Source: Candidatus Cloacimonadales bacterium (GTDB lineage Bacteria; Cloacimonadota; Cloacimonadia; Cloacimonadales; JAIOQZ01). Taken from it: a stretch of DNA of 64,000 bases. A program made the translations under genes and the position numbers. Position 1 is the stretch's first letter; the number at the start of each line of letters is the position of its first letter. Below the pieces are notes generated by a model. The model saw nothing but the letters and a program-made list of their open reading frames with translations. It was not told the DNA's origin and searched no databases. The stretch covers positions 1,888,001 through 1,952,000 of the forward strand of contig OY762463.1 of the NCBI GenBank assembly GCA_963665815.1, written 5' to 3'. Of this stretch, positions 2,919-34,806 are shown one piece after another.

Positions 2919-2919
2919 A

Positions 2920-3546: not shown

Positions 3547-3555
3547 ACTAAATCC

Positions 3556-5106: not shown

Positions 5107-5127
5107 TTATCCTCCGGAAATAAGAAA

Positions 5128-5532: not shown

Positions 5533-5542
5533 AACTATCTCA

Positions 5543-6088: not shown

Positions 6089-6927
6089 TTTGACTCCTTA
6101 CCTTTTTTTAAGCTATCTACTAATCCTTTGTAAGCTTGAGTATACTCACGTTTTTCTTCCTGACGGAAGATACCGCGGATAATCTTTCCTTCTTTCTCTT
6201 CAGGTTTAAGTTTTTCAGCAGCAGCGATAGTGATAGAGTTTTCTTTCATCTGCATCATCATTTCCGGAGCTGCACCTTTTTTATTAAGTCTTCCGTAAAT
6301 AACAGGACAAGCACAGATAACTTCTACAACTGAAAGTCCTTTATGCTGAATAGCTTTTTTTATCATGTTTTCTGCTTCAACCGCATGATATGCTGTAGTT
6401 CTACCCACAAATGTAGCTCCTGCACCCATGGCAAGTTCACAGATATCAAATACAGGATCAATATTACCATAAGGCATTGTTGTTGCGCGATGTCCTGTAG
6501 GAGTTGTAGGTGAATATTGTCCACCTGTCATTCCGTAGATATTGTTATTAAGAACAATTATGTTTATATCAATATTTCTTCTTGCTGCGTGGATAAAGTG
6601 ATTACCACCAATTGCTGTTGCATCACCATCACCGGTAACAACAAAAACATTCATATCAGGTTTGTACATTTTAAGACCGGTAGCAAATGGAATTGCTCTT
6701 CCATGAAGAGTATGCAGTGTATTGAAGTCTGCATAAACAGGCATTCTGCTGGAACAACCGATACCTGATACCATTGCGATATCATCTTTTTTGATTTCAA
6801 GAGAATGGATAGCTCTGATGATATCACCAAGAACAATACCATTACTGCAACCCTGACACCAAACGTGTGGGAATTTCTTGTTATGTCTTAAATATTTATG
6901 TATTGTTTTTAATGCTATAGTTGCCAT
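6085..6927 (-). CDS. korB: 2-oxoacid:ferredoxin oxidoreductase beta subunit (TPP-binding, KorB-like)
   Basis: WCQGCS, SGIGCSSR, GDGDATAIGGNH, NNNIYGMTGGQYSPT motifs. Confidence 0.88.
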   Translation of the reverse strand: MATIALKTIHKYLRHNKKFPHVWCQGCSNGIVLGDIIRAIHSLEIKKDDIAMVSGIGCSSRMPVYADFNTLHTLHGRAIPFATGLKMYKPDMNVFVVTGDGDATAIGGNHFIHAARRNIDINIIVLNNNIYGMTGGQYSPTTPTGHRATTMPYGNIDPVFDICELAMGAGATFVGRTTAYHAVEAENMIKKAIQHKGLSVVEVICACPVIYGRLNKKGAAPEMMMQMKENSITIAAAEKLKPEEKEGKIIRGIFRQEEKREYTQAYKGLVDSLKKGKESK

Positions 6928-8523: not shown

Positions 8524-10059
8524 TTACTTAATTAATACAGCTTTGGAACTGAGAGAATAATTACCAGTTTTCAAAACCATAAGATATACTCCACTTGAGA
8601 CATTAATCCCATTTTCATTAATTCCATTCCACTTAAGAATATTAGTTCCTTTCCGGAATGTTCCTTCTTTGATTGTCCTTATTTTCTGGCCTTTAACATT
8701 ATAAACACAGAATTCACCTTCTGCGGCTTCAGTCAGGTCAAATTTTATTGTTGTCTCCGGATTAAACGGATTCGGATAAATATCCATTGAATTGTCATAT
8801 TGTACAACATCCTCAGATATTCCCACTGTTAAACTCAGCAGATCATCTCTGTTAAGTTCTGTAGATGGTGACTGATATGCCGGTGCAACACCTGCTACAG
8901 CCCATCGAATATACCCCGAAGAAGGTACATACTGAATAACATGAAGATTATGCATTACACCACAGGCATGATACATTAATGACAGACTTTTCTGTAGTGT
9001 TACATTTGTTGTATCTTCTATTGAACTTGAAAGAGCTGAATATCTGGAGCATGCTGAAGGAGATATCAATTCTCTGAAATGGTTTGTTGCAGCAAGATTA
9101 TCACCTGCAATAGCCGTATTGTCTGTCACATTTCTGCTGGTTAACCCAAGATTATCATTTATTTCAAATACTGTTGCAAACTCATACTCAGCCATATGTG
9201 TTACAGACTGCACAATAGCACCAAAAGCACAATTATCATCGGTCAGTGCTTGTCTTACATCATCAATGTTTGATACATTATCATCATTACAGTCTCTGCT
9301 TTCTACAGCTTTTCTGAGAGTTAATAATATTGGACTATATGTGTGTCCGGGAACTCTCGTATTATCATTTCCCATATTCTGGAAAACTGCCACGCCACTC
9401 TCATTTATTGCAGAAAGCGCTCCAAACATACCCGGGAATCCAAAGGAAAACCATGGTTGCTCATCGACTTCAGATGGTTCATGCACAATAATCATTGAGT
9501 TTGAACTGAGATGAGAGCTTACTGACCAGTCAAGATATCTTGTAATAACCAGTTCACCATTTAAATTATCATTTTGAGTAGCATTACCCCAGCTTGTCAG
9601 ACTTGAACATCCACCTGTATGTTCCGGATCACAATATCTATTGAAAGTCGTAGAAAGATCCGGTATTGTGTTGCATATAAGAACATCTATATAATCAATA
9701 TCCCTGTTTAAATAAGTAGAATGAACTGATGCTCCTGCGTCCTGAATACCTGTAACAATTGCCATTGCCTCTGTAACATATAAAGAATCACATACGAAAT
9801 TTGCTTCAAAATATGATCTCATTCCATTGTAATATTGAGATTGCCCCATAAGCATAGTTCCTATGACATAGTTATCGAATACCTGAAGAAATTTTTCGGC
9901 AACAAGATAACCGTGAGCATAACCTCTTTCCTGATGCGTTCCCCATAATTTCATTACGGTTTTACCATTAACATCAGTTATAAAACCATTGACTTGTCCA
10001 AAAATTGATATAACAATTGTTAATAAGAGAATTAGCATTATTTTCTTTTTCATACTCAT
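8524..10059 (-). CDS. Secreted peptidase C45/NAAA-like Ntn hydrolase with FlgD-Ig/T9SS-like C-terminal domain
   Basis: Signal peptide; GTHQERGYAHG, GCSS (candidate nucleophile Cys), RYLDW, INESG, ATNHF; C-terminal YPNPFNP...WNG...SSGVY. Confidence 0.75.
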   Translation of the reverse strand: MSMKKKIMLILLLTIVISIFGQVNGFITDVNGKTVMKLWGTHQERGYAHGYLVAEKFLQVFDNYVIGTMLMGQSQYYNGMRSYFEANFVCDSLYVTEAMAIVTGIQDAGASVHSTYLNRDIDYIDVLICNTIPDLSTTFNRYCDPEHTGGCSSLTSWGNATQNDNLNGELVITRYLDWSVSSHLSSNSMIIVHEPSEVDEQPWFSFGFPGMFGALSAINESGVAVFQNMGNDNTRVPGHTYSPILLTLRKAVESRDCNDDNVSNIDDVRQALTDDNCAFGAIVQSVTHMAEYEFATVFEINDNLGLTSRNVTDNTAIAGDNLAATNHFRELISPSACSRYSALSSSIEDTTNVTLQKSLSLMYHACGVMHNLHVIQYVPSSGYIRWAVAGVAPAYQSPSTELNRDDLLSLTVGISEDVVQYDNSMDIYPNPFNPETTIKFDLTEAAEGEFCVYNVKGQKIRTIKEGTFRKGTNILKWNGINENGINVSSGVYLMVLKTGNYSLSSKAVLIK

Positions 10060-10447
10060 TCCTGTTTTAAATTTTATCTGCTATATTTGATTATACATTT
10101 TCTGTCAAGGTTTTGAGTCCGATTATTTAAATAAATAATTTCTTCAGCCATTTTGTAATGCAAAAGATCTTTACATAGTTACAACAGCTTTTCTTGATTT
10201 CTCTCGAAAATAAGTGTTGAGTTCTTATCTCATTCAAGTATAATGCTTTCATCTTCTCTGACATCCGGGATATGTTAAAAGATTTCGATAGTATGCAAAG
10301 CTGTCATCCATTATAGTAAAAAATTGGAATCCCCCGTTTTTTCTTGAAAATCTGACTTCAAGAAAATTGGAAGGATTTTTAGCAGACATTTCTTAGAAAA
10401 ATGCATTCTTCATTTTCTTTGGGTTTCGGGGGGATGCATGCTATTGT

Positions 10448-10477
10448 AAAAAAGCCTGCCGGATTAATCAGCAGGCT
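10448..10477 (-). terminator. Rho-independent terminator
   Basis: AGCCTGC...GCAGGCT stem with flanking A-run, downstream of the stop at 10523. Confidence 0.7.
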
Positions 10478-10522
10478 ATAGAAAACGCAATTTTGTATGA
10501 ATTAATTTGATTTAGTTTGTTA

Positions 10523-12820
10523 TTATTTCAGCAATACTGCTTTAGTAATGTCTGTTGCTTCGTTTGTTTTAACTTTAATGAAGTAAACACCGGATGCAGA
10601 GTCTGTATTACTATCTGTTTTTCCATCCCATTTCAATGCTTGCTTACCTGCACCAAATTTCCTGTCAGCTAATTGTCGAACCTTCTGTCCTTTTATGTTG
10701 TATACTGCAACATCAACATTCGATTCCTTCTTCAAATTGAACTGAATATTTGTTTCAGGATTAAAGGGATTTGGATAATTATTTAATTGAAGTCCATTAT
10801 AATCAGATGCAAGTTCTTGATCTTTTATACCTAACCTGTCAAGATCAACATCAATCACTCCATAGTAGACAGCTCCACCCTCATCGTCAACAGTATCATC
10901 TTCATTTTCCTGTACACTTGATCCATATTTGTTATCAGCATAGAATGAAACATGTAATCTGGCAACTTCAGGTGATGGTTTTTCTATTGTATTTCCCATA
11001 GTCCAGTAGACTAGGCTTTCATTAGGAAATTGAGTCCTTAGCTGTTGATCATAGAAGAAGTTCACAGTATCCGGAGGACCTGTCTGATTTTGGTAAATCT
11101 CTGTATCATATACATTGTAAAGTTCTATCGGATCCGACCAGTGATTCCCATTATCTACTGATAATACAATATGACAACCTGGACGTTCAAACATTGGATG
11201 AGTATTCAAACCAGCATCGTGTGTCCTGAAGTTCATAGCACCTTCACCATACATTGCTGCAAGCCATCTTCCGTCCTGTGATCGAGCATATCTGAAATAA
11301 TTTTCATGGAAATCCTGATCAAGGTCATGATGCCAGAGTGGTAGAAAATACTGATTCCAGGTCCAGTGCCTTAATGTATCAAGTGCACCGTCATTATCTA
11401 CATCCCAAGGTGCTCTCGGAAATACATCATCACTTAAATATGAACCATCAGGAGCTTTATTCTCAGGATGTACCGGATTAAATGTTATCATCTCCTCTTC
11501 ACTTGCCGCATCAGGATCAAACACAAATTCAATAACTTTTGTATTCATGTAAAAAGAGGTTATCATAGTGTCTGTTCCGGTATAGTTATAATACTTTGGA
11601 GTCAGTGTACTCATAACATGAAAACGACCATAATTGTCCTGAGTTGCATTCATATGAGAGCCAAAATAAATACTCCAGAAAAGACTGTCTCCAGCTGAAA
11701 TATTACCCGTTGTTGGGAAATATGAGTAAAGAGTATCTGTTTGCGGATCTCTGAACTGAGGATTTTCGAATTCGAAACTTATTCCCTGGTCGTGAGATAC
11801 AAACTCTCCCTCGCCGTAATTATTGTTATAGTATGATCTTATCGTAGGAGTCATCAATCCGAATCGATCAACTACTCCCGTTTTGTAGTAATATCCGAAC
11901 AACACTATTTCCTGACCATTTTCAGATACGCATATTCCTTTCTGAAACCTACCCCATTCATCATTGACATACATGTTCCAGTCATTCAATTCCTGAAATG
12001 TCTTGTATGTCCATCCGTTATCATCAATCTGACCTGTATTATCATTCAGATCTGCATAGGCAAATAGAATATTTTCGGAAGCTGATGCTGTAGTATCAGT
12101 GCCTGTTATCGGATTATGCGATTTATTGTTACTGGCAAACAGAAATATTCTCGAAACATCGTTATCCATTCGTCTGATGAAAATATTTGGCCAAACATAC
12201 TGATCATCTACCTGAGTTCCATAGTTACCGCCGTAATCTGAATTATCAAACACACTGATAGATGTATAACTCAGATCTTCGAGCAGGGAATACTGATCCA
12301 TAACAAGTTTTATTTCAAACTCATTATCACCATCATAATCGCTATGAAATGCAATATAAGTTCTCTGAGTCACAGGATCAATTGCCAGACTTCCATAACC
12401 TTGTCTTTGGGTAGCCGATGCTACACCAGAATTAAAGTTGACAGTTCCGTCATATCCTACCATGTAACTTTTAACATATCTGTCAGTGTTTTGCTGGATC
12501 TGTAATGACATAACCATCTGATCTCCCAGAGTGACACCGGGATTAATCGCTGCAGGGAATGGATCCTGCTTAACAATTGGATTTGTATTATAGCTTGATG
12601 GGAAATAATCATATTTTGAAGTTGTGATCAAGCTGGGAGCAACATGCCAAAAATAAGTAATGTCCTTATCATCGTCTGATGCTCTCTCCTTCAATTTGAA
12701 ATTAGAATTTTTTGCAGGAACATACCTTTTAGAAACTGAATCATCTCTTTTCATGTAATCATCCGCCAAAATCACTACTGAAAAAGAGATAATAATTACA
12801 AATACAAGTAATTTTCTCAT
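10523..12820 (-). CDS. Secreted protein, probable Asp-box beta-propeller, with FlgD-Ig/T9SS-like CTD (paralog 2)
   Basis: Start adjusted to MRKLLV at 12820 (GGAGG upstream); signal peptide; Asp-box SVDNGNHW; CTD NYPNPFNP...WDGK...ASGVYF. Confidence 0.8.
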   Translation of the reverse strand: MRKLLVFVIIISFSVVILADDYMKRDDSVSKRYVPAKNSNFKLKERASDDDKDITYFWHVAPSLITTSKYDYFPSSYNTNPIVKQDPFPAAINPGVTLGDQMVMSLQIQQNTDRYVKSYMVGYDGTVNFNSGVASATQRQGYGSLAIDPVTQRTYIAFHSDYDGDNEFEIKLVMDQYSLLEDLSYTSISVFDNSDYGGNYGTQVDDQYVWPNIFIRRMDNDVSRIFLFASNNKSHNPITGTDTTASASENILFAYADLNDNTGQIDDNGWTYKTFQELNDWNMYVNDEWGRFQKGICVSENGQEIVLFGYYYKTGVVDRFGLMTPTIRSYYNNNYGEGEFVSHDQGISFEFENPQFRDPQTDTLYSYFPTTGNISAGDSLFWSIYFGSHMNATQDNYGRFHVMSTLTPKYYNYTGTDTMITSFYMNTKVIEFVFDPDAASEEEMITFNPVHPENKAPDGSYLSDDVFPRAPWDVDNDGALDTLRHWTWNQYFLPLWHHDLDQDFHENYFRYARSQDGRWLAAMYGEGAMNFRTHDAGLNTHPMFERPGCHIVLSVDNGNHWSDPIELYNVYDTEIYQNQTGPPDTVNFFYDQQLRTQFPNESLVYWTMGNTIEKPSPEVARLHVSFYADNKYGSSVQENEDDTVDDEGGAVYYGVIDVDLDRLGIKDQELASDYNGLQLNNYPNPFNPETNIQFNLKKESNVDVAVYNIKGQKVRQLADRKFGAGKQALKWDGKTDSNTDSASGVYFIKVKTNEATDITKAVLLK

Positions 12821-13064
12821 TTCTTCCTCCATGAGTACTTTACACAATAACCAGGACAAAAATCATTATTGAGGTTCATGAATTTTGGAATTCATTTGGA
12901 AACTCCTTAAAGTTAATTGTCTTGAGGTGACAATGATGATTTTCAAATCCCATCATCGACTCCTATCAGTGCAAAGATATCTCCTTAATTCATACAATTA
13001 AATATGAAGCAAAAAATATTCCTAATCATTAATGAATTGATATTTTTTTATTGATTTATTCAAT

Positions 13065-13099
13065 AAAAAAAAAAGAGAGGAGCAAAATTACTCCTCTCT
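13065..13099 (-). terminator. Rho-independent terminator
   Basis: AGAGAGGAG/CTCCTCTCT 9-bp stem with a long A-run on the + strand, just past the stop at 13121. Confidence 0.85.
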
Positions 13100-13120
13100 C
13101 TAAGCTTTAAAGCATTTATA

Positions 13121-15421
13121 CTATTTCATGAGTACTGCTTTTTTAACATCTGTAGTTTCACCTGATTGTACTTTAATAAAGTATACACCTGATGATACAG
13201 ATTTGCTTGAATTATTGTCACCTTCCCATGTAAGTGTACGTTTTCCAGCCTGCATTTTTTCGTCTGCAAGTGTTTTCACGAGCTGACCTTTTACGTTATA
13301 AACGCTTACGTTAGTGTGAGCATCTTTTTTAAGGTTGAAGCTGATTGTTGTTGTTGGGTTGAATGGGTTAGGATAATTGCTTAATTCAAGTCCATTGTAT
13401 TCCGGAGCTGAAGAATTATTGTTACCAACATGTTCTAATTTAGCGTAATCAATATCAATTACACCGTAGTATATTGTTCCACCTTCTTCATCTACTTCGT
13501 CACCTTCATTATCCTGAATAGATGAACCGTATTTGTTATCGGCATAGAATGCTATAGGAAGACGTGCTTCTCTTGGTCCTATTTTTTCAATTTTGTCACC
13601 CATATACCAGTAAATAAGTGATTCATTAGGGAACTGTGAACGAAGAAGTTGATCGTAGAAGAAGTTTACTGTATCAGGATTGTTTGGATCATCCGGATTG
13701 TCGTAAATTACTGTATCATAGATGTTATAAAGTTCGATAGGATCTGACCAGTGATTACCATCATCACCGGAAATCACGATGTGACATCCTGGTTTTTCAT
13801 ACATAGGGTGTGTATCAAGCTGGTTATCATGAGTTCTTTTATTCATTGCACCTTCGCCATACATGGCAGCAAGTAAGTGTCCATCTTCGCTGCGTGCATA
13901 TCTGAAATAGTTTTCATGGAAAGCTTGATCAAGTTCATGATGCCATAATGGAAGGAAATACTGATTCCATGTCCAGTATCTGAGAGTATCTCTTTCACCG
14001 TCAGCGTCAACATCCCATGAAACTCTTGGGAACACGCTGTCATCTAGATAAGTACCATCAGGCATTTTATCTTCTGGATATACCGGATTGAATGTAATAC
14101 GTTCTTCGTCTGTGGCTGCATCAGGATCAAAGATGAACTCAATAACTTTTGTACTGAAATAGAATACATAACCTAAAGTATCAGCACCATCGTATGAGTA
14201 GTACTGAGGGCAGATAGTATTCATTACGTGGAATCTACCTTGACCATCTTGAGTAGTCATTAAGTGTGATCCGAAATACAGATCCCAGAAAAGGCTGTCA
14301 TTTTCCATGATGTTATCATCTGTTGAGAAGTAGTAATACAGTGTATCTGTATCAGGATCTCTGAACTGAGGATTTTCTTGAGGAAGATTGATATCTTTAT
14401 CAAAAATATCGAAATCACCTTCGCCGTAATTATCGTTATAATAAACTCTCATTATTTGTTTTCTGAAATTGAAACGATTTCTTGTATCATCTTCTGTATA
14501 GTAACCGTAAAGAACAATTTCTTGTCCGTTTTCTGAAACATAAATACCTTTTTGGAAACGTCCCCAATTATCATTGTCATAGTTATTCCATGCATTCATT
14601 GTAGGGAATGTTTTGTATGTCCATGCATCATCAGGGATAACGGCTGATGAACCTGTAATGTCAGCATAAGCAAAAAGAACATTTTCTGAAGCTGCTGCTG
14701 TAGAGTCATCACCAGTAATAGGGTTATGTGACTTATAGTTGTTACCGAAAAGAAAGATCCTAGAAACACCATTAGGCATAGTTCTGATAAACATTGTAGG
14801 CCAGATATATTCATCATCAACCTGTGTTCCGGCTGTTCCACCGTAAACCTCGTTATCAAAAGAACTAACTGCAGTATATGAAAGAGCTCCGGTAATTGAA
14901 TACTGGTCTGTTACTGCTTTCATTTCATATTCACCGTCACCATCAAAATCTGAGTGGAATGCGATGTAAGTTCTTTGAGTATTAGGATCGATTGCAAGAG
15001 TAGGATAACCTTGTCTCTGTGTAGCTGATGCAACACCTGCATCATCAACTTGAGTACCATCGTTGCTTACAAAGTAACCTTTTACATAACGGTCTGTGTT
15101 TTGTTGAACTTGAAATGTCATAACCATCTGGTCACCGAGATCACCGGCAATACCAGAAAATGCTTTTTGATATGTAAGTGGACGATTCTGATATGCTCCA
15201 GGGAAGTAATCATATTTTGAATCGACAACTGGTTGCGGAGCTACATGCCATGAATATTCAATATCCTTTTCATCGTCAGAAGCTCTATCCTTAAGTATAC
15301 TCTGTGGGTTTTCCACAGCAAATTTCTTTGACTGTTTCTTCGGCTGAGATTTCATAAAATCAGCTGCAAATAATCCTAAAGAAACAGAAAGAATAAGAGT
15401 TATTATTAATAACTTTCTCAT
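13121..15421 (-). CDS. Secreted protein, probable Asp-box beta-propeller, with FlgD-Ig/T9SS-like CTD (paralog 1)
   Basis: Signal peptide; Asp-box SGDDGNHW; CTD NYPNPFNP...SSGVYF; shares many identical blocks with 10523..12820. Confidence 0.82.
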   Translation of the reverse strand: MRKLLIITLILSVSLGLFAADFMKSQPKKQSKKFAVENPQSILKDRASDDEKDIEYSWHVAPQPVVDSKYDYFPGAYQNRPLTYQKAFSGIAGDLGDQMVMTFQVQQNTDRYVKGYFVSNDGTQVDDAGVASATQRQGYPTLAIDPNTQRTYIAFHSDFDGDGEYEMKAVTDQYSITGALSYTAVSSFDNEVYGGTAGTQVDDEYIWPTMFIRTMPNGVSRIFLFGNNYKSHNPITGDDSTAAASENVLFAYADITGSSAVIPDDAWTYKTFPTMNAWNNYDNDNWGRFQKGIYVSENGQEIVLYGYYTEDDTRNRFNFRKQIMRVYYNDNYGEGDFDIFDKDINLPQENPQFRDPDTDTLYYYFSTDDNIMENDSLFWDLYFGSHLMTTQDGQGRFHVMNTICPQYYSYDGADTLGYVFYFSTKVIEFIFDPDAATDEERITFNPVYPEDKMPDGTYLDDSVFPRVSWDVDADGERDTLRYWTWNQYFLPLWHHELDQAFHENYFRYARSEDGHLLAAMYGEGAMNKRTHDNQLDTHPMYEKPGCHIVISGDDGNHWSDPIELYNIYDTVIYDNPDDPNNPDTVNFFYDQLLRSQFPNESLIYWYMGDKIEKIGPREARLPIAFYADNKYGSSIQDNEGDEVDEEGGTIYYGVIDIDYAKLEHVGNNNSSAPEYNGLELSNYPNPFNPTTTISFNLKKDAHTNVSVYNVKGQLVKTLADEKMQAGKRTLTWEGDNNSSKSVSSGVYFIKVQSGETTDVKKAVLMK

Positions 15422-15462
15422 TTTTTCCTCCTCAATTCATACAATTTATATTGTTTTAGCAA

Positions 15463-16521
15463 TTAATATTCCATTTTTATTGTTAAACGGTGAGCACTTT
15501 CAATGAATGACTCTTCAAGCCATCCCATTCTTGAATATGAATAATCAACACTGAATATACCTATTGATGACGGTATTTTTAATCCTAAACCATAGTTAGA
15601 AGGCATAACGGCTTCAAAACCATCGTATCTTTCTTCAAGGTCAGTATTAAATTGTTTACCGGTTCTTAAGTATAAAAGACTATATTTGTACTCAAATCCA
15701 AGGTTGAAGGATTCTCTTCTGTCAACACAGTTGTTGATCTGAAAAGCTCCCATAAGGTATGTAAGATCTTCTCTTGTCTGATACAGATCGATAGAAAGCC
15801 CGAATGAAAAATTCATTGGTATTTGAGATGTAAGATTGTCACCATCTTCATCAACTTCACCATCGCCATCATTATCAAGCAAATCGAACGGATCTTCACC
15901 ACTTCTGCCATCACCATCCTCATCAATATCAAACTCAACTTCACCACCGAAATTGCTCAAAGCCATACCAATAGTAAGGTTTCTCCAGTGTGTGTTATAC
16001 TGAGATCCAATATCAAATGCAATAGTATTTACTGCGTATTTATACAATTCTTCTCTGAGATATTTACCTGTAAATCCAAATGAGAACTTATCAGTAAATT
16101 GTCTACTGTATGTAAGACCAGTACTGAGAGCCATACATGTAAACTTTTCACCTGTGAATCCTTCTTCTTCTGTTGTGATTTCCATATCATCCATATGCAT
16201 CATATAAGCATGGAATGCAAATACTCCGAGATCATTGTAAAAGGATGCTGCAAAATAATCAAACATAATGTCTGCAACATAATCAGTATGAGAAAAGAAA
16301 AGCTGATTCTTCTCTTTTAAAGCAAGACCACCTGGATTCCAGTATGTAGATGAAATATCATCTGATACTGCAACATAGGCTTCTCCCATACCAATCGCGC
16401 GTGCATCTGTGGTAATTTTCAGAAACTGCATATCTGCAGTACCTGTTTTTGAGAAAACTTCTGCAAACATGTTTGAGGCAAAAAGAGAAATTACGAATAG
16501 TGTAATAAGTATTTTTTTCAT
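15463..16521 (-). CDS. PorV/PorQ-family outer-membrane beta-barrel
   Basis: QFLKITTDARAIGMGEAYVAVSDDISSTYWNPGGL N-terminal signature; alternating beta-strands; terminal aromatic residue. Confidence 0.85.
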   Translation of the reverse strand: MKKILITLFVISLFASNMFAEVFSKTGTADMQFLKITTDARAIGMGEAYVAVSDDISSTYWNPGGLALKEKNQLFFSHTDYVADIMFDYFAASFYNDLGVFAFHAYMMHMDDMEITTEEEGFTGEKFTCMALSTGLTYSRQFTDKFSFGFTGKYLREELYKYAVNTIAFDIGSQYNTHWRNLTIGMALSNFGGEVEFDIDEDGDGRSGEDPFDLLDNDGDGEVDEDGDNLTSQIPMNFSFGLSIDLYQTREDLTYLMGAFQINNCVDRRESFNLGFEYKYSLLYLRTGKQFNTDLEERYDGFEAVMPSNYGLGLKIPSSIGIFSVDYSYSRMGWLEESFIESAHRLTIKMEY

Positions 16522-16531
16522 TTTTTACCTC

Positions 16532-19500
16532 CTACTTGATTATTACAAATTTGTCGACTTGAATTTCTTTAGTCTTCAAATCTCTTATTGAATAAAGATA
16601 AACACCGGCTGTGATAACCTGATCGTTTTTGGAAAGCATGTCCCAAGGGTGCATACCTGATCCGGCTAAAGCTTCGTTTCCATCTTTACTTACGTTAATT
16701 ATATCGTAGAATGTCTCACCATGATGCTCGAATTCATCAACTAAGTCTCCGGCAAGAGTGTAAACTCTGATTTCGCAATCTTCCGGTAAGTTCATAAACC
16801 ATATTCTCTTACTCTTATCACCCTTTGTATCATTCTCAATTCTTCCGTCAAAAGAAGATTGACCAATATAAGGATTTGGTACGACAAAAATATCGTCCAT
16901 GTTCTTTGAACTTGTTGCTCCCGGGAAATAAGCCATTTTGTTAGCATCTTTTCCACTTTCAAGATATTGAAGATTGTTTGCCGGCATACCGCGGTCGAAT
17001 GCTGTCACAGAAATATAATATTCCACGCCAACAGGTAAATAATCAATTTCAGCCTTGTAGTATCTTGATGCAAGTCTTAAATCTGAATTATCATTGAAAT
17101 ATTGAGCATCCAGAAGGTCGTTTTCACCAAGGTGTTCTTCAATAGGTATTAACTTGTCATCATATAATGCAAGATAAATTTCTGCTGAAACATCAGGATT
17201 CTTCATGATAAGAGCTTCAAGTATAAAAGCTTGATCGTGGTAATCCGGATTATATTTCTTATTGACTGCCGGATTCTTTAAATCTGCAAGATATTCATTG
17301 ATCTTATCGATGTCATTCATTTCCGGATCATAAAGAGGATAACCATATATTTTATCACCAATCTCATAATTTACTAATTCATAGTTTTCATTATAATGTT
17401 TATAAACCATATCATTTTCATCAGCGAATCTGGCGTTAGGTAAGCCTTTGTCTACACCAAGATCTCCACCGAAATCTGTGAAGTTAGCAGCAGGATTGTT
17501 TTTAACGATATCATAATCTATCATATCCTGATATGTATCAACTTTATCCCATCTTCCTGACATTTCCCAGAATTCAGATTCTCCTCTTCCCTTTTTACTC
17601 CAGAGAGAATATCCCTGGAAGTCATGTCTAAGTCTGTTACCTGTTACCGGATCAATAATAGCATTTTCATTTAACTGCTTTGCAGGAATTCCGGTAAGAT
17701 CAGGCAAATAACTTGGAAGTGCAGAGTTCTGATCCTGATATCCCATCTGTTCATCACTTACAGTCATATAATCTACAGTGAACTCGGATCTGTTATCCCA
17801 GTATACATTAAGTCTTTTTCCATCTCTCGATAAAACTGATGTCATTTTAGGGAATTGAGGTGGTTCAGGTGGATTATAATGAGGGAAAGTGTCTGGTTTA
17901 ACAACATTTGTTAAAGATTGAGCTTCACCGTAAATCTGTTTAGCCCAAGCTGATGTTTGTTTAAGTTCTTCAACTGTTTCTCCAGGGAACACAGCGATAA
18001 CAATCTTCATTGTTTTACCGGGTTCAAGATTCCATGACTCCTCTGTTGGATTATCTGATAAACCCTGCATATCACCATAGAATGCAAAAAGATATCTTGT
18101 ATCGTCAGGAGAATCTACTTGCTTTTCAGGAAAATCCCTTAGAGAAGTAAACTTATCTGTGTTAGGGTTTCTATCTGTAAGAAGCCAGTACTTTTCATTA
18201 TTTGTTCTTTGACCTGTCAGTAAATCTTCCTGAGTAGGTTTTGTGTCATTAGGACCATCACCTCTATTCCAGAACCAGCAGGCAAACTCAAGATTATCAG
18301 GGTCAGGAGTACAAACTCTTGATCCAATCATACCGGTTGTAAGACCACCGTCTTTATCTTTGTCGTATGTGTAGGCAAATTCAAACCCTTTACCTCTTAC
18401 ATAACTACTGACATCATCCTTTGATCTTTCATCACCCTGCCAGGACTGAGGTCCAACGTCAGAGTCCATATAAATACCCATAGCACAATCATAGAGAGTC
18501 TCTTCACTATCTAAGTTCATGTTTGTTATATCGAACTCAACATATACAAGGTTTTTGATATAATCATAACTCCATTGATAACTCATCTGTCTTACCTGAA
18601 TATTCAGGGATTTGTGATCTGAAGATACAGCTTGTTGACCAAGATCTCTTTCAGGTCCTGTAGCAAGAATAGGAGAATAATCATAATAGTAACCAATCAA
18701 ATCCTGTTCAGATATTGGAAAACCATCTTCATCAATGATTCCGTCACCATCATCATCAACTAACTCAGTCATTGAGCCTGTTTCCCCGCTGCTTACAAGA
18801 CTATCAGCTATTGATAAATCCTGGAATCCAAGAGGGAACCAGATATTGATATTATCTTCGATTATATCATTTGGATTATTTGCTCCGTAGAAAAATCCTG
18901 GATAATCTTTACCAAAGCTGTCAAATACTTCAGGAAGTTCATTTCCATTTCTAAACGGAACTGCAGTACCTACGGGGTCTTCATCAATTTTACCATCATT
19001 ATCATCATCAACTCCACGTCTGTGTTCACGAATTGTAGCTTCAATGACTTCATCGGTATTGGTATATATATCATATATATTGTTATGCTGTGAGTTAAGC
19101 ATTGGTTTATCAATTCTATTAAACAACGGAAGTAATTCATAAATACTTGCATCACCATCAAATCCAACTGACACGAGTGTATCGATGACAGGATTATTGA
19201 TATAAACAGGATCCCAGCCATCATCACCTTCAGCCATTGTTCTGCGAGTACTATCTACTTTCACAGAATCATCATATTCATACTCATAATAATAGTATAG
19301 TCTCTGGTTTAGACTGTTCAGTCTGTATTTTTTTGCTCCGAACCATAATGCTCCTTGAAAAAGGTAATCTATGGAACTTCCTTTAGGGTACTCCAGAGAA
19401 GGCCAATCCCCATTGGAGCCTGATCCAAAGAATCCATAATTAGAAACTCTCAAGCTTATGTTACCTTTATCGTGATACTTATCAATATCCAATTGCTTTT

Positions 19501-19594
19501 TTGCTCTATGCTGGTCAACCATCTCAGCAGAAGCAAAGCATGTCAGACTGATTAATATCAGAAACATAAACCATTTTGAATTTAATTTGCTCAT
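16532..19594 (-). CDS. Large secreted/surface protein (1020 aa) with acidic DxDxDG motifs and VVPNPY-type C-terminal domain
   Basis: Signal peptide; SLEYPKGS..DYLFQGALWFG; YYISVTAFDRG (FN3-like); IFVVPNPY...IWFMNLP...YTLAGDLV...WD...GVYLY...KFVIIK. Confidence 0.75.
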   Translation of the reverse strand: MSKLNSKWFMFLILISLTCFASAEMVDQHRAKKQLDIDKYHDKGNISLRVSNYGFFGSGSNGDWPSLEYPKGSSIDYLFQGALWFGAKKYRLNSLNQRLYYYYEYEYDDSVKVDSTRRTMAEGDDGWDPVYINNPVIDTLVSVGFDGDASIYELLPLFNRIDKPMLNSQHNNIYDIYTNTDEVIEATIREHRRGVDDDNDGKIDEDPVGTAVPFRNGNELPEVFDSFGKDYPGFFYGANNPNDIIEDNINIWFPLGFQDLSIADSLVSSGETGSMTELVDDDGDGIIDEDGFPISEQDLIGYYYDYSPILATGPERDLGQQAVSSDHKSLNIQVRQMSYQWSYDYIKNLVYVEFDITNMNLDSEETLYDCAMGIYMDSDVGPQSWQGDERSKDDVSSYVRGKGFEFAYTYDKDKDGGLTTGMIGSRVCTPDPDNLEFACWFWNRGDGPNDTKPTQEDLLTGQRTNNEKYWLLTDRNPNTDKFTSLRDFPEKQVDSPDDTRYLFAFYGDMQGLSDNPTEESWNLEPGKTMKIVIAVFPGETVEELKQTSAWAKQIYGEAQSLTNVVKPDTFPHYNPPEPPQFPKMTSVLSRDGKRLNVYWDNRSEFTVDYMTVSDEQMGYQDQNSALPSYLPDLTGIPAKQLNENAIIDPVTGNRLRHDFQGYSLWSKKGRGESEFWEMSGRWDKVDTYQDMIDYDIVKNNPAANFTDFGGDLGVDKGLPNARFADENDMVYKHYNENYELVNYEIGDKIYGYPLYDPEMNDIDKINEYLADLKNPAVNKKYNPDYHDQAFILEALIMKNPDVSAEIYLALYDDKLIPIEEHLGENDLLDAQYFNDNSDLRLASRYYKAEIDYLPVGVEYYISVTAFDRGMPANNLQYLESGKDANKMAYFPGATSSKNMDDIFVVPNPYIGQSSFDGRIENDTKGDKSKRIWFMNLPEDCEIRVYTLAGDLVDEFEHHGETFYDIINVSKDGNEALAGSGMHPWDMLSKNDQVITAGVYLYSIRDLKTKEIQVDKFVIIK

Positions 19595-19621
19595 TAAATT
19601 CCTCCAATTTATTATACTTTT

Positions 19622-20263
19622 TTATTCTAATGTGAAATTCAAGGCAAACTCAAGCCATACAGCTACTGGTTCTCCCTGAAATTTTGCAGGTGTGTATTCA
19701 AATTTTTTCACTGCATTGACAGCTGCTTCATCAAGTCCTCCGGGACCTGGCATCAGCGATCTGACTACAACTACTTCACCTACAGTTCCATCTTCGTAAA
19801 TCTCAACTCTGAGACCAACGTTACCTTCTATCTCAAGTTCCTTAGCAGTTTCCGGGTATTCAGGTTTTACCTGTTTAATTAACACAGGTGGATCCTCAAA
19901 CATTTGGAATATTGGAGTTTTTCCACGAGTTTTAGGTGGAGCTTTTTTCTCTTCAAATTGGCTGATAGCAGTATTCTCAATTGTTTCAATGATTGATAAT
20001 TCATCTTCTTCAGATTCTTCACCAATATCATCAATAACAATTTCAAGATCCTGAACTTTTTGTTCTTCCGGAGGCTTAATTTCATCCGGTATGTCTTGAA
20101 TAACGTCTTGAACAATTACATTATCAGCAACTTGAATGTCTCTTGCTTTCACCTTAATCTCAGGTGTTACCAGAAATGCAAACAGAGCTAGTAAAACTGT
20201 CAGGCTAAGACACTTTTCATAGTAAGTACTCGCTACATCTTTCCAGTCATGATACTTTTTCAT
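19622..20263 (-). CDS. tonB: Energy transducer TonB
   Basis: N-terminal TM helix and C-terminal PEYPETAKELEIEGNV...LDEAAVNAV...PAKFQGEPV domain. Confidence 0.9.
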   Translation of the reverse strand: MKKYHDWKDVASTYYEKCLSLTVLLALFAFLVTPEIKVKARDIQVADNVIVQDVIQDIPDEIKPPEEQKVQDLEIVIDDIGEESEEDELSIIETIENTAISQFEEKKAPPKTRGKTPIFQMFEDPPVLIKQVKPEYPETAKELEIEGNVGLRVEIYEDGTVGEVVVVRSLMPGPGGLDEAAVNAVKKFEYTPAKFQGEPVAVWLEFALNFTLE

Positions 20264-20271
20264 AATTCCTC

Positions 20272-20682
20272 CTAAAGCTTCTTGGCCTCAAACGTAACTG
20301 TAAGAGCTTCTGCTTCTCTCAGCTTGTTCATAATATCAGCCATAACGCCATATTCAGCTTTCGTATCAGTTCTGAATGCAACAATCATATTAAAATTCTG
20401 TGCAAGTTTCCTCTGCATAGTCGGACTAATCATAGGAATTGTAAGAATTCTGTCATCAACTGAGATTTTTCCACTTCTGTTTACATATACCGTAACCGCA
20501 TTCTTTCTTGGAATCTTTTTAATAATTTCTTCATGAGCCTTTGGCATAGTGATCCGCAGACCTCTTTCTTTTACAAAGACTGTTGAGACCATAAAAAATA
20601 TTAATAAAAGAAATGCTATATCCGACATTGACGCAGTGGGAATCAGTGTTTCAGGTTTTGACTGTTTTTTAATATTTGCCAT
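20272..20682 (-). CDS. exbD: Biopolymer transporter ExbD
   Basis: IPTASMSDIAFLLLIFFMV with the conserved TM Asp. Confidence 0.9.
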   Translation of the reverse strand: MANIKKQSKPETLIPTASMSDIAFLLLIFFMVSTVFVKERGLRITMPKAHEEIIKKIPRKNAVTVYVNRSGKISVDDRILTIPMISPTMQRKLAQNFNMIVAFRTDTKAEYGVMADIMNKLREAEALTVTFEAKKL

Positions 20683-20691
20683 TTCCCACTC

Positions 20692-21114
20692 CTAATTTGT
20701 ACCTAAGGATATTTTCTGAGCACCTGCCATACGAAGCCTGTCAAGTACATCAACCATATTCTTATAGTTACTTTTTCTATGAGTTTTTAATGAGATAACC
20801 ATATCAGGATTATCGGATACAATTTTATTTACCATACCTTTAATCTCTGACAATGCAACTTCTTGCGGCTCATTCTTTCCAACTTTAATTTGAATCTTCC
20901 CGTCCTGACCAACCTGGATCTTCGTAACATTTTCTGCCTGAAGTTTGACCTGGTTTTCTGTTGTATCTGATTTAACAGGAAGAGTTAAGCCTATACCTTT
21001 TTTAATATCAAATTTTGTTGTTGTAAGAAAGAAAACAAGAAGAAGAAAAGCAACATCTGAAAGAGATGCTGTGGGGATGCCCCCTAAATTTCTTTTTTTC
21101 TTTCTAATGAACAT
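20692..21114 (-). CDS. exbD: Biopolymer transporter ExbD (second copy)
   Basis: IPTASLSDVAFLLLVFFLTTT. Confidence 0.9.
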   Translation of the reverse strand: MFIRKKKRNLGGIPTASLSDVAFLLLVFFLTTTKFDIKKGIGLTLPVKSDTTENQVKLQAENVTKIQVGQDGKIQIKVGKNEPQEVALSEIKGMVNKIVSDNPDMVISLKTHRKSNYKNMVDVLDRLRMAGAQKISLGTN

Positions 21115-21948
21115 CTATTCCCCCTGATTTTCTACCAGAGTTTCAATAAGTCTTTCTGAACCTTTTTGCATGTCAATAACCATTCCGTCTACCATTGACA
21201 TGAACATGTTGTTAAAGAATTGAACAGGAATAGCAACAGCAAGACCGGCTGCTGTTGTGATAAGAGCTATTTTAATACCGGAAGCAACAATTGTAGGGTC
21301 CACTTCACCGGCAGCAGCGATATCATCAAATGCTGTGATCATACCAATAATTGTACCAAAGAAACCAAACATAGGCGCAAGGTTAATAGTTGTGTTAAGT
21401 GGAACAAATCCTTTTTCAAGGAAAGCCATTTCAAGAACACTTGCAGCTTCGATTGCTTTTTCAACTGCTTCAACGCCTTTGTCAACTTTAAGTAAAGCCA
21501 TTCTTACGATTACTGAAACAGGTCCTCTTGTTTCTTCACAAAGAGTAATTGCTTCGTCGTATCTTTTATCTTTTACTAAAGGTAAAAGCTTATCAAGAAA
21601 ATCTTCTACTTTAATTTTAGCATATTGTAATGATACAAGTTTCCAGATGATTGTTGCAATCGCCCATAAAAGCAGAATAAGGATTGGCCACATTGTGAAT
21701 CCACCCTGGATAAATATATTAACCGCAGTGCTTCCGAATATAGCTTTTGCAAGTTTTTCCATTCCACCAACTTCTGGTGACTCTTCCATTTTATCGTCTG
21801 AAACGGCTGCTTCTGTCTCCTGAACAGCCTCATTTCCAACTGCTGTGCCTTCTTCCATTACTTCAGTTTCCTGGGCAAACAAATTGCCTGCGAAAACTAA
21901 CTGAAATGCGAACAGTACTATCAGTAACATGATACTACTTTTTCTCAT
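21115..21948 (-). CDS. exbB: MotA/TolQ/ExbB proton channel protein
   Basis: APMFGFFGTIIGMITAF and GIKIALITTAAGLAVAIP motifs. Confidence 0.9.
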   Translation of the reverse strand: MRKSSIMLLIVLFAFQLVFAGNLFAQETEVMEEGTAVGNEAVQETEAAVSDDKMEESPEVGGMEKLAKAIFGSTAVNIFIQGGFTMWPILILLLWAIATIIWKLVSLQYAKIKVEDFLDKLLPLVKDKRYDEAITLCEETRGPVSVIVRMALLKVDKGVEAVEKAIEAASVLEMAFLEKGFVPLNTTINLAPMFGFFGTIIGMITAFDDIAAAGEVDPTIVASGIKIALITTAAGLAVAIPVQFFNNMFMSMVDGMVIDMQKGSERLIETLVENQGE

Positions 21949-21985
21949 TCTTGTATCCTCCTTAATATCAATTATTATTTTAAAA

Positions 21986-24900
21986 TTAGAATTTATATGA
22001 AAGTTCTAAACGGAATGTTCTTCCGTCTGTTCTATTATTTGGATTTGCTGATGAAAGATAATGTACATACTTCATATCCTCAGAAACAAAATCAGATACT
22101 CCTGTAGATAAGTCAGCACCATCTTCGTATGGATCACCTGTTTTTGAGTAAACATTGACTACATTTCTTTTATCAAACAAATTATTTATTGTAAATGTAA
22201 CAGCAAACTGTTGTTTTTCTTTGAATTCTATATTTTTTCTGAAGAAGAGGGATGCTTCATCAACATAATCCTGCTCTTTACTATATTTCTCAAGAGCTCT
22301 GTCATCTTCATTAACTGGAGTGTAAGGTCTTCCAGAGCTAAAAGTGTAATTAAATCCTGTATTAAATCCACCTTTCCAGCCAAAAGGAACGTTGAAATCT
22401 GTTCCGGGAATGTAAATCTCATCATCTTTAGCAATGATATAATTCATTCTGAATTTAGCACTGTGTCTGATATCCCATGGAAGCCTGAATTCTCTGAGGC
22501 TTGTACGAGTAATTTCAGGAGTAGCACTGTCATTATTACCTTTAGACCATGAAAGTGAGTATGAGAGCCCCATACTAACATGATTTTCACCATTAATTTT
22601 ATTAAGTTCAATTTCAAGTCCTCTTGAACTACCGTAATCTTCAGATACATATTGGAAATATTTAATATCAGTATCAGTATCAAGAGTATCAAACTTTGTA
22701 CTCACATAGTTATAAATGTTTTTATAATATGCTTGAATTGATATATCATAATCTTTAAAATCATCTGCAAACTGGTGTTGGTAACCAACTTCATATGTCA
22801 CAGTAATCTGTGGTTCAAGTTCTGAGTTACCAATCGGGTCATTACCTACATCATCAACTGCAGGATCTTTTGTTGTAAAAATGTGTTTCATATTAGGTAA
22901 CTGATTCTGATAGTTATAAAGGAATGATACATTATCTCTCTCAGAAATCGGATACAAAATACCAAATCTTGGAGAAATAAGTAATTGAGATGTGTCTCCA
23001 TCAAATTCCATTTTTCTGAACCCACCATCAATTTCCTGAATTTCGTAACTGTCATGTAAATACCACCAGTCAAATCTTAATCCGGCATTAACTTTCATAC
23101 CTTCAAAAGTGAACTGATCCTGAATGTAATAAGCCGCCTGCCATGGAGATGCTTTATAACCTTCTCTTTGACCGGCAGATCGCATTATCATATATCTGTA
23201 AAATTCCGGTTTGTAATAATAAATCCTTGTATCATCACCATTATCACCATGCATTACTAATACTGAGTCGCAAATATCATTTTCAGGATAATATTCCCAA
23301 TCAAGATTATCATCAATTGCTATTGTTCCTGTTGGATTTAAATCTAACTTATCAAATGCAATATAAGCGTTGTTGTTAACTTTACCTTCATCATAGTATG
23401 TCAGATTGTTAGCATCATCTCTTTCAATGAAATGTCTCTGGATCTCCAGACCGGTTTTTATCTGATGACCTAAATCCAATGGGTTATACTGAAAATCAGA
23501 TCTGAATTGAATGTTCTCAGTTGTATTGTCCTTAACTGAAGCAAAATATGATCCCGGAGGTGAGTACCCCTGAATCGCTTTATCAACATCATCTGCCTTT
23601 TCATTCCATTTCCATTGGTTAGCTTTTAAATAACCGAGACTGTCAAGAACACCGTCTGAATCTCTATCAATACTATAAACACCATAATATTCCAGAATTG
23701 GATTATAATTAGCATAGTCAAGTTTCCAGAAGTCACCTTCACTTAATTGACGAGGAGATTCCTTTGTGTTCTTCTTATAATAAGAAGCTTTCACCTTGAG
23801 AATGTTACCACTGAAGGTATAGTCATAATTACCTACAACCTGCATCAGAGAGTTCTCAGTAACTGCAAAGTTTTCAAGTGCATATTTCATTGATTGATTA
23901 TAAGGATAATTCTTGGAATTCTCTCCCCTGACAGCAATTGTCATTTTCTGAGAAGGAGTGAATGCATACTTGAATTTTGAGTTGTAATTATATGAATTAT
24001 AATTTCTTTCATCAATATCAATACCAAGAAAACTGTCTCTGTCTTCATAAGGTCTATTGTCAACATTATAAATCTCATTAGCTAATAAATGTCTACCCCC
24101 AAAAGTATAATCTTCATAAGGATTATTCTCTCTCCACTGACCGTCTCTACCATCTGATCTGGCAAGAGCGGCATTAATAAAGAATGTGAACTTTTTGGCT
24201 AAAACATCATTAAATGGAAGTATAGGTCCTCCAAGCGTGAACGCAACTCTATCATAATTGTATCCATCTACCAGAAAGTGATCTGTAGAATACTTGATAG
24301 TTCCTTCGTATTCTTCTGTACCGCTTTTTGTAATAATATTCATTACACTTGACTGTGAGTTACCATACTCTGCAGGGAAACTGAACATTTGAGAAGTAGT
24401 GTGAACAGCGTCCATATCAACTGAAAGTGCAGCACCACCATCAACAGGGTCACTAACCTGCATACCGTCAATCATAATTGTTGTTTCATTAGCTCTTCCG
24501 CCACGAGCATGAGATACTCCGCCAACTGTCACTGTTCCGGGAGACTGTGCAATAAGATCATTAATACTTTCAATATTCTTTTCTTCAAGATCTCTGGAAG
24601 TATTCTGACGTTTACTTGTACCCGCAGTCGCATTCAGTCTTTTTACTTTCTGTCCCGTTACTACTATAGGACCAGTCTTTATAGCATGAACACCAAGTTT
24701 AACATTCAGAGTTCTGGTTACATCAAGCTGAATCTCAATATCTTCATAAACTGTTTCCTGATAGCCCATTCTCTTGAATTTAACAACATACTTACCGGGG
24801 TACAAACCGACTATCTGATATGCTCCCTTTTCTGATGTCATTCCATTACCTTGCAAATCATCGCCAAGATAAACAAGAACGATCGCTCCCTGCAATGGTT

Positions 24901-25009
24901 CGCCTTGTTCGTTCTTCACCTTCCCGACTAAATTACCCGTCTCTCCGGCATGTAGAGCTATACTTGCTCCAAAGCATATTAACAGAAGCAGCAATTTTAC
25001 TTTCCGCAT
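21986..25009 (-). CDS. TonB-dependent receptor with N-terminal carboxypeptidase-regulatory-like domain
   Basis: Signal peptide; GNLVGKV...GEPLQGA N-domain; plug RGGRANET..IDG; NAGLRFD, GNSELEPQ, NNLFD; C-terminal ELSYKF. Confidence 0.9.
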   Translation of the reverse strand: MRKVKLLLLLICFGASIALHAGETGNLVGKVKNEQGEPLQGAIVLVYLGDDLQGNGMTSEKGAYQIVGLYPGKYVVKFKRMGYQETVYEDIEIQLDVTRTLNVKLGVHAIKTGPIVVTGQKVKRLNATAGTSKRQNTSRDLEEKNIESINDLIAQSPGTVTVGGVSHARGGRANETTIMIDGMQVSDPVDGGAALSVDMDAVHTTSQMFSFPAEYGNSQSSVMNIITKSGTEEYEGTIKYSTDHFLVDGYNYDRVAFTLGGPILPFNDVLAKKFTFFINAALARSDGRDGQWRENNPYEDYTFGGRHLLANEIYNVDNRPYEDRDSFLGIDIDERNYNSYNYNSKFKYAFTPSQKMTIAVRGENSKNYPYNQSMKYALENFAVTENSLMQVVGNYDYTFSGNILKVKASYYKKNTKESPRQLSEGDFWKLDYANYNPILEYYGVYSIDRDSDGVLDSLGYLKANQWKWNEKADDVDKAIQGYSPPGSYFASVKDNTTENIQFRSDFQYNPLDLGHQIKTGLEIQRHFIERDDANNLTYYDEGKVNNNAYIAFDKLDLNPTGTIAIDDNLDWEYYPENDICDSVLVMHGDNGDDTRIYYYKPEFYRYMIMRSAGQREGYKASPWQAAYYIQDQFTFEGMKVNAGLRFDWWYLHDSYEIQEIDGGFRKMEFDGDTSQLLISPRFGILYPISERDNVSFLYNYQNQLPNMKHIFTTKDPAVDDVGNDPIGNSELEPQITVTYEVGYQHQFADDFKDYDISIQAYYKNIYNYVSTKFDTLDTDTDIKYFQYVSEDYGSSRGLEIELNKINGENHVSMGLSYSLSWSKGNNDSATPEITRTSLREFRLPWDIRHSAKFRMNYIIAKDDEIYIPGTDFNVPFGWKGGFNTGFNYTFSSGRPYTPVNEDDRALEKYSKEQDYVDEASLFFRKNIEFKEKQQFAVTFTINNLFDKRNVVNVYSKTGDPYEDGADLSTGVSDFVSEDMKYVHYLSSANPNNRTDGRTFRLELSYKF

Positions 25010-25124
25010 TAATAGGCCTCCCTTTATCTATTTAAAAATATTTTTTTTCATCTGACAAAAACATTCCGAGAATTGTTAGATGTCAATTAATTTTTGTAAT
25101 AATAACTATCAATAATCGTTCCAT

Positions 25125-34796: not shown

Positions 34797-34806
34797 AGGA
34801 GTCATT

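Follow-up and report, generated by a model that had tools for sequence, protein, structure and literature searches.

In the secretion system known as type IX (T9SS), some surface proteins keep the C-terminal sorting domain (CTD) that marks the substrates of this system. As described in PMC10202324, PorU and PorZ retain uncleaved CTDs, by which they are held on the outer-membrane barrels PorV and PorQ, and the genes for type B cargo cluster with the genes for the cognate PorP/SprF barrels. Another outer-membrane protein, PorF (PG0534/PGN_1437), resembles TonB-dependent receptors and is required for type IX secretion (PMC5445135). The mutant in porF falls into one group with those in porQ and porZ, and PMC12704123 gives the interaction partners of PorF as unknown; its authors proposed that PorF imports glycans for anionic lipopolysaccharide (A-LPS) or for the linkage of A-LPS to cargo. 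In the 2016 genome survey of PMC4793230 (whose set may lack Cloacimonadota), 60 of 97 Bacteroidetes genomes had a complete T9SS, and no genome of any other clade did. Here we describe an operon from a Candidatus Cloacimonadales bacterium that links a TonB-dependent transporter and a TonB motor to a barrel of the PorV/PorQ family and to two surface proteins of 1,020 and 766 amino acids, which we call P1020 and P766. The operon lies in the 64-kb stretch of DNA that we analyzed (positions 1,888,001–1,952,000 of contig OY762463.1, assembly GCA_963665815.1), which we refer to as the window. In the papers that we searched, we found general mentions but no description of this operon or of T9SS components in Cloacimonadota.

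Between 25009 and 13121, eight genes form one operon, and the outer-membrane module that it encodes is core equipment of the Cloacimonadota. We used the window proteins as queries against all open reading frames (ORFs) of 80 related loci from species-representative genomes, all of them from Cloacimonadota. (The loci were selected with a closer alignment, as a mixed-phylum alignment was too diverse for locus finding.) In the counts that follow, the denominator is the number of loci with enough sequence on that side to show the neighbor. TonB was encoded directly upstream of P1020 in 71 of the 77 loci with room, and the transporter, ExbB, and TonB were all present in 53 of the 54 loci with at least 6 kb of upstream sequence. 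Downstream of P1020, we found the barrel in 65 of 69 loci and both the barrel and a P766-like gene in 51 of 57. The genes are also closely packed, with estimated median gaps between neighbors of 9 to 32.5 nucleotides (nt). For example, the median gap was 9 nt between ExbB and the next gene (66 loci), 19 nt between TonB and P1020 (at most 60 nt in 63 of 72), and 10.5 nt between P1020 and the barrel (at most 60 nt in 70 of 72). The genes that flank the eight-gene unit vary between loci.

Six loci depart from this arrangement (L016, L040, L041, L057, L058, and L075), and L063 is too short to judge. These are second copies of P1020, and four of the seven loci come from assemblies that also gave a canonical locus. 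Such second copies are full-length and stand without TonB or barrel genes, often amid other CTD proteins.

The proteins of the operon diverge at quite different rates. Across the loci (leaving out the near-identical L001), the median identity to the window protein was 49.6% for P1020, 51.8% for the barrel, and 58.5% for ExbB. Neighboring cytoplasmic enzymes had median identities of 47.6–57.5% (PfkB, 53.4%; AIRS, 54.7%; LplA, 47.6%). P1020 and the barrel thus evolve like housekeeping enzymes, and so they look like parts of a machine. Median identities were lower for the transporter (37.7%), TonB (38.9%), and P766 (27.6%).

P1020 is the least familiar of these proteins. It matches no Pfam family, comparing its sequence to PDB chains gave nothing useful, and an atlas search returned no family name. 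Its AlphaFold2 (AF2) model, which was built from 125 relatives, has a predicted local distance difference test score (pLDDT) of 87.4 and a predicted TM-score (pTM) of 0.87. When we compared this model to the PDB with Foldseek, the best matches were PorZ (5m11, E = 1.5e-4) and PorU (6za2), both with a probability of 1.0; these matches cover 157–189 columns and are confined to the C-terminal part of P1020. The body, over about 280–290 columns, matches the beta-supersandwich N-domains of glycoside hydrolase families GH116 and GH94 and of cyclic glucan synthase (probabilities of 0.98–1.0), as well as the N-domains of cellobiose phosphorylase and dextran dextrinase. FN3 domains lie between the body and the C-terminal part. 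P1020 ends in a divergent CTD: it has no match to TIGR04183, and it matches the CTD profile that we built with E = 7.4e-4. Given the structural matches to PorZ and PorU, the likeness of this domain to other CTDs is at the level of the fold.

P1020 belongs to neither the PorZ nor the PorU family, as we recognized no catalytic domain in it and no cysteine is invariant among the 125 aligned relatives. It scored 14.5 bits against the PorZ model NF052228 (cutoff of 260 bits) and has no beta-propellers; also, it has no match to the PorU sortase model NF033707 and no C25 peptidase domain. We rejected the idea that P1020 is a lipoprotein because the cysteine in its signal peptide is not kept in the aligned relatives. 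The family is large, with at least 1,500 representative clusters at E values of up to 0.001 and 82 clusters at up to 1e-30. Among 20 distant relatives that we scanned, 10 had a standard type A CTD, three had just a weak match to the C terminus of PorZ, and seven matched nothing. One homolog search found relatives of about 700 amino acids (aa) in Ignavibacteria that are 63–83% identical to query P0155. Atlas labels, which we treat as leads, place other relatives in Eiseniibacteriota, Krumholzibacteriota, WOR-3, and Fidelibacterota. The named homologs of P1020, and those of the transporter, are from Candidatus Cloacimonadota.

The barrel encoded next to P1020 matches NF033709 at 180 bits (cutoff of 90 bits) over residues 29–351 of 352. 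We predicted the structure of a complex between residues 21–352 of the barrel and residues 840–1020 of P1020. This pair scored 0.88, versus 0.00 for the best of three controls. In our calibration, 58 of 80 solved complexes and two of 110 mismatched pairs reached this mark, and these counts hold roughly because the alignments were purpose-built here. The docking runs shared at least 89% of their contacts, and the pLDDT of the partner was at least 66. The C-terminal part of P1020 has 11 residues that are invariant or nearly so, and seven of them lie in the predicted interface, along with a conserved N-terminal segment of the barrel. P1020 is therefore predicted, from these models, to dock on the neighboring barrel via its CTD.

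Each of the four proteins of the operon that belong to the outer membrane or the cell surface contains an acidic loop of the thrombospondin type 3 kind (D-x-D-x-D-G-x-x-D), at position 448 of the transporter, positions 196 and 280 of P1020, position 216 of the barrel, and position 470 of P766. Across the window, five of 51 ORFs of at least 150 aa have this loop. Among relatives, nearly all barrels have it (39 of 40), and so do all 13 Cloacimonadota P1020 proteins, with two copies in each; it is less common among the transporters (7 of 24) and the members of the P766 family (12 of 32). These shared loops are of a calcium-binding type, and the motif suggests that the assembly may be bridged by calcium.

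Together, P1020 and the barrel resemble the attachment complex of Porphyromonas gingivalis in several ways. P1020 is a large surface protein with a C-terminal fold of the PorZ/PorU type, its gene adjoins that of a barrel of the PorV/PorQ family, and the two proteins are predicted to bind via conserved residues of the CTD. The clustering of the genes for a surface protein and its cognate barrel is also reminiscent of the type B CTD and PorP/SprF pairs. Unlike in the attachment complex, P1020 has neither a C25 sortase domain nor beta-propellers, the barrel falls under the equivalog cutoffs for PorV, PorQ, and PorV2, the pair is encoded inside a TonB operon, and the host belongs to the Cloacimonadota.

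The window contains a second, solitary barrel of the PorV/PorQ family (313 aa; 32638–33579, minus strand), which had been overlooked in the original prediction. It matches NF033709 at 145 bits and the PorQ model at 144.9 bits (cutoff of 220 bits), and it passes the cutoff of the Pfam family PorP_SprF at 24.5 bits. This genome therefore encodes at least two barrels of the PorV/PorQ family within 17 kb.

The product of the first gene (21986–25009) is, judging from its sequence and those of its orthologs, a genuine but divergent TonB-dependent transporter that lies outside of the SusC/RagA subfamily. On its own, the window protein has a CarboxypepD_reg domain (E = 1.9e-13) and a weak match to Plug that is below the Pfam cutoff (E = 0.024), and comparing its sequence to PDB chains gave nothing useful. 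In the PDB, a profile of 24 orthologs matches the plugs of CirA (E = 2.3e-8), PfeA/FepA (E of about 7e-6), YncD, and PqqU, and the Pfam Plug domain is present in 23 of the 24 orthologs. Barrel models match few of them: TonB_dep_Rec_b-barrel matches four, OMP_b-brl_4 (PF25183) five, and OMP_b-brl_3 three of the 24, and none of these models matches the window transporter itself. By eye, there is a putative TonB box at about residues 112–119, in which V117 is nearly invariant. The SusC/RagA model TIGR04056 does not match the window transporter; it does match 8 of the 24 orthologs (best E = 9e-15, with the cutoff of 368 bits not applied to each member).

We take PF25183 to stand for barrels like Oar, which is reportedly the outer-membrane conduit for PopC in Myxococcus. 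Oar, too, is a TonB-dependent transporter of great length whose N terminus holds a CarboxypepD_reg domain. The window transporter differs from Oar in having no match to a barrel model; also, nothing that we observed here points to export.

The operon holds a complete motor (ExbB, two ExbD proteins, and TonB), and all four components exceed their Pfam cutoffs. Near the operon in other genomes, there are further TonB-dependent transporters: a BtuB-like protein of 658 aa (L048:11276–13252, plus strand) and a protein of 777 aa (L079:16693–19026, plus strand). The motor is thus unlikely to serve a single receptor.

The last gene of the operon encodes P766, which probably is an exposed and variable subunit or a cargo protein, as it is evolving rapidly. 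Comparing its sequence to PDB chains gave nothing useful, a profile of orthologs did better, and the atlas returned no family name. The AF2 model of P766 is of moderate confidence (pLDDT of 74.3). Foldseek identified it as a beta-propeller that is nearest to polysaccharide lyases of families PL24 and PL42 and to sialidases, with E values of about 2e-8 and target-normalized TM-scores of up to 0.57. When we considered GH33 sialidases and BNR repeats specifically, the matches to BNR/Asp-box profiles were weak (E = 5e-4) and the TM-scores for the propeller were low. Pfam and profile scans of P766 recognized no catalytic domain. The atlas cluster for the P766 family has 1,775 members, most often from Cloacimonadota, and some loci have one to three tandem copies of the gene.

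The CTD of P766 is standard (42.5 bits for TIGR04183/PF18962; cutoff of 23 bits), and so are those of its paralog (42.1 bits) and of the protein encoded beyond the paralog (35.2 bits). The latter protein (8524–10059) is likely a distant member of peptidase family C45, given a match of 71 bits to NF040521 that is below the curated cutoff of 85 bits (E = 1.1e-19; positions 2–266 of 313 in the profile). The true start of the paralog is likely the ATG at 12820, which has GGAGG just before it and gives a protein of 765 aa, similar in length to P766; the TTG start that was listed is probably wrong. The paralog and the C45-like gene are recent and lineage-specific additions outside of the conserved unit: they are syntenic in one of the 80 loci (L001, the closest relative), which also contains the sole strong ortholog of the paralog.

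Table 1. Features of the locus in the Candidatus Cloacimonadales window (positions are relative to the start of the 64-kb window).
Feature	Position	Strand	Details
Putative promoter region upstream of transporter gene	25010..25124	-	TTGACA hexamer and ribosome-binding site, by eye
TonB-dependent transporter, 1007 aa	21986..25009	-	Signal peptide, CarboxypepD_reg, TonB-box-like stretch, plug, putative large barrel
ExbB (MotA/TolQ/ExbB proton channel), 277 aa	21115..21948	-	PF01618, 93.6 bits
ExbD, 140 aa	20692..21114	-	PF02472, 78.6 bits
Second ExbD, 136 aa	20272..20682	-	PF02472, 72.9 bits
TonB, 213 aa	19622..20263	-	One membrane helix, acidic linker, TonB_C (PF03544, 66.5 bits)
P1020, 1020 aa	16532..19594	-	Signal peptide, beta-supersandwich, FN3, divergent PorZ/PorU-like C-terminal domain
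PorV/PorQ-family outer-membrane barrel, 352 aa	15463..16521	-	NF033709; acidic Ca-binding-type loop insert
P766, 766 aa	13121..15421	-	Modeled beta-propeller with putative Asp-box, standard type A CTD
Terminator-like hairpin ending the eight-gene unit	13072..13101	-	13-pair stem, then T run
P766 paralog with CTD	10523..12859	-	64% identical to P766
Terminator-like hairpin 3' of paralog	10453..10477	-	9-pair stem, 6 GC pairs
C45-like Ntn hydrolase with type A CTD	8524..10059	-	NF040521, TIGR04183

What the original prediction had observed at this locus (Table 1) held up. Our ORF and domain scans recovered the ten minus-strand genes between 8524 and 25009 at the positions given and with the domains that had been claimed for them, there is a 13-pair hairpin at 13101–13072 where a terminator had been placed after the 766-aa gene, and both the paralog and the C45-like hydrolase do carry a CTD, as TIGR04183/Por_Secre_tail is above its cutoff in each. 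The gene order, which had been put forward as one of the points on which the proposal could fail, is conserved among the Cloacimonadota loci. The three CTD proteins that had been listed are correct, but the divergent CTD of P1020 had been missed: the profile of CTDs that we built found P766, the paralog, the C45-like protein, and, weakly, P1020, and no others in the window. We also agree that the window lacks a SusD-like lipoprotein, SprA, and PorK/L/M/N, and we saw no PorU either, with no match to any of these in 44 of its 47 ORFs of at least 150 aa. (The other three ORFs are opposite-strand shadows of larger genes.) Scanning 10 unannotated ORFs of the window likewise found no SprA, PorU, or PorKLMN, and neither did scanning 35 large unlabeled ORFs from the flanks (out of 49 non-redundant ORFs of at least 450 aa). 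A scan for consensus promoters found no excess over shuffled sequence; the TTGACA in the upstream intergenic region was seen by eye alone.

A few genes downstream of the operon, three of the related loci encode TPR (tetratricopeptide repeat) proteins of 805–927 aa (L006:8577–10994, minus strand; L008:18235–21018, minus strand; and L034:18124–20832, plus strand). They match the PorW/SprE model weakly (cutoff of 250 bits), with 74–88 bits for the proteins of L006 and L008 and E = 1.7e-07 for that of L034. This could be a hint of further parts of the T9SS type, or it could be similarity between TPRs alone.

Elsewhere in the window, the region at 1069–8088 (minus strand) encodes the alpha, biotin carrier, gamma-like, and beta subunits of a methylmalonyl-CoA decarboxylase that pumps sodium, together with a 2-oxoacid:ferredoxin oxidoreductase of three subunits. 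These genes are consistent with the fermentative or syntrophic life style that has been reported for the phylum. On the plus strand, 34170–38159 contains three genes, for an unannotated protein of 208 aa, an FHA-domain protein of 722 aa, and an unannotated protein of 395 aa.

Tentatively, we favor the view that the operon corresponds to the late T9SS stage of surface attachment (PorF, PorZ, and PorQ) and has its own TonB motor, and we read it as something other than a locus for the uptake of a specific nutrient. P1020 would cross the outer membrane as a CTD protein, would keep its CTD, and would stay docked on its cognate barrel, much as PorZ stays on PorQ and PorU on PorV. The body of P1020 would bind a glycan at the cell surface, and the transporter, once opened by TonB, would take in this glycan, whole or as a fragment. 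P766 would be a variable cargo protein or a subunit of a surface coat that is handled at the same site. In P. gingivalis, PorF, PorZ, and PorQ are encoded at scattered sites and mutants of the three are phenotypically similar, whereas their putative counterparts here are wired to a dedicated TonB motor. Going by its description, PorF is a barrel of the TonB-receptor type that is functionally tied to the display of CTD proteins and for which a role in glycan import has been proposed. The difference is that porF is not beside porQ, porZ, or tonB in P. gingivalis, while the genes here are physically linked, with those of the motor among them. The original prediction had overlooked PorF, an essential T9SS component that resembles TonB receptors. 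The interface that it had expected between a PorV-family barrel and a CTD is predicted for P1020. Its idea of a PorV-like barrel as an anchor fits our evidence as well, although the idea itself was already known from PorU on PorV and PorZ on PorQ.

Several considerations weigh against this view. In textbooks, nutrient uptake takes just this form: a TonB-dependent transporter with surface partners of carbohydrate type. Complexes of PorV with CTDs have reportedly been solved in work on the F. johnsoniae translocon, so the high docking score may reflect likeness to those structures rather than real binding. The barrel falls short of every equivalog cutoff that would name it (85.8 versus 220 bits for PorQ, 75.1 versus 250 for PorV, and 60 versus 325 for PorV2), and the body of P1020, lacking beta-propellers and a C25 peptidase, has no homology to PorZ or PorU. 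We identified no residues for glycan binding or for catalysis. The transporter is a candidate counterpart of PorF by analogy. The housekeeping genes upstream of the operon are also often syntenic, and so part of the conserved order is phylum-wide synteny. Finally, by the locus tags in PMC5445135, porF, porQ, and porZ are unlinked to each other and to tonB in P. gingivalis.

The original prediction was of a capture-and-uptake system, that is, an analogue of a polysaccharide utilization locus (PUL) that is built from T9SS parts, possibly for peptides. The suggestion of peptides is not supported: the C45-like hydrolase and the paralog are syntenic in a single locus, and the accessory proteins that are conserved have carbohydrate-type folds. 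We rejected peptide uptake on the grounds that the C45-like gene is outside of the conserved unit. If glycans are substituted for peptides, then P1020 on its barrel would be a binding protein or a lid, P766 would cut or bind a polysaccharide, and TonB would power the import of the fragments as food. This is a live rival, and it stays reasonable given that glycan uptake uses parts and folds like these, but we consider it doubtful. As in SusC/SusD PULs, the operon combines a genuine TonB-dependent transporter, which has CarboxypepD_reg at its N terminus, with co-transcribed surface proteins of carbohydrate-type folds, in that P1020 resembles GH116, GH94, and cyclic glucan synthase and P766 resembles PL24 and PL42 lyases and sialidases; the tandem copies of P766 at some loci are also what one would expect of substrate-facing parts. 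However, substrate-specific loci are unlike this one, whose arrangement is fixed throughout the phylum and whose P1020 and barrel are as conserved as housekeeping enzymes. There is no SusD-like gene in the locus, the window transporter is not in TIGR04056, the motor is encoded on the spot, the accessory proteins have CTDs instead of being lipoproteins, no catalytic domain was recognized in either P1020 or P766, and no regulator or gene of sugar metabolism lies inside the unit. Alternatively, the operon might consist of two unrelated modules that happen to be co-transcribed, namely a general TonB system with one receptor and a T9SS anchor pair (P1020 and the barrel) with its cargo, with a canonical T9SS encoded elsewhere. 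The additional transporters in the phylum (L048 and L079), which imply that the motor probably serves several receptors, are in keeping with this, as are the syntenic housekeeping genes upstream in many loci and the second copies of P1020 in L016, L041, L057, and L058, which lack TonB and barrel genes. We nevertheless think that it is unlikely, as gaps of 10–30 nt without terminators are kept across lineages whose proteins are about 50% identical, the boundary of conservation lies exactly around the eight genes with variable flanks on either side, and both halves occur together in 53 of 54 loci.

This phylum is rich in CTD proteins (witness the 1,775 members of the P766 cluster), the PMC4793230 survey (with the same proviso about its set) found complete T9SS in Bacteroidetes only, and we saw no core T9SS gene in the window or in the scanned flanks. 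These observations raise the prospect of a TonB-powered export route for CTD proteins that does without SprA, in which the transporter would be the conduit, the barrel a shuttle, and P1020 the receiving station. We judge this to be highly improbable: folded proteins of 700–1,000 aa are much too wide for a plugged barrel of 22 strands, the negative result for SprA and PorKLMN covers the window and the scanned flanks alone, and the TPR proteins with weak similarity to PorW/SprE hint at other T9SS parts. A more general claim, to which we give little credence, is that a dedicated TonB–ExbBD motor, acting via a TonB-dependent barrel, powers the outer-membrane handling of CTD proteins in Cloacimonadota and related phyla of the FCB group (Fibrobacteres–Chlorobi–Bacteroidetes). 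In its boldest form, the operon would be a compact alternative to the SprA/PorKLMN machine, with the barrel as shuttle or anchor and P1020 as the surface station. In a weaker form, the operon would reveal what PorF does in the classical system.

Several of the essential outer-membrane proteins of type IX secretion, PorF among them, have no known role. What is new here, going by the papers that we searched, is a physical link, within one operon and kept across a phylum, between TonB machinery and parts of type IX secretion. This is independent genomic evidence that TonB-energized transport and the display of CTD proteins belong together, and it raises the questions of whether PorF needs TonB and whether PorF touches PorQ or PorZ. 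Furthermore, P1020 gives a name to a large uncharacterized family that is found in Cloacimonadota and Ignavibacteria and, if the atlas leads are right, in Eiseniibacteriota, Krumholzibacteriota, and WOR-3. It appears to be a conserved component of the envelope of poorly studied anaerobes that are important in digesters and sediments.

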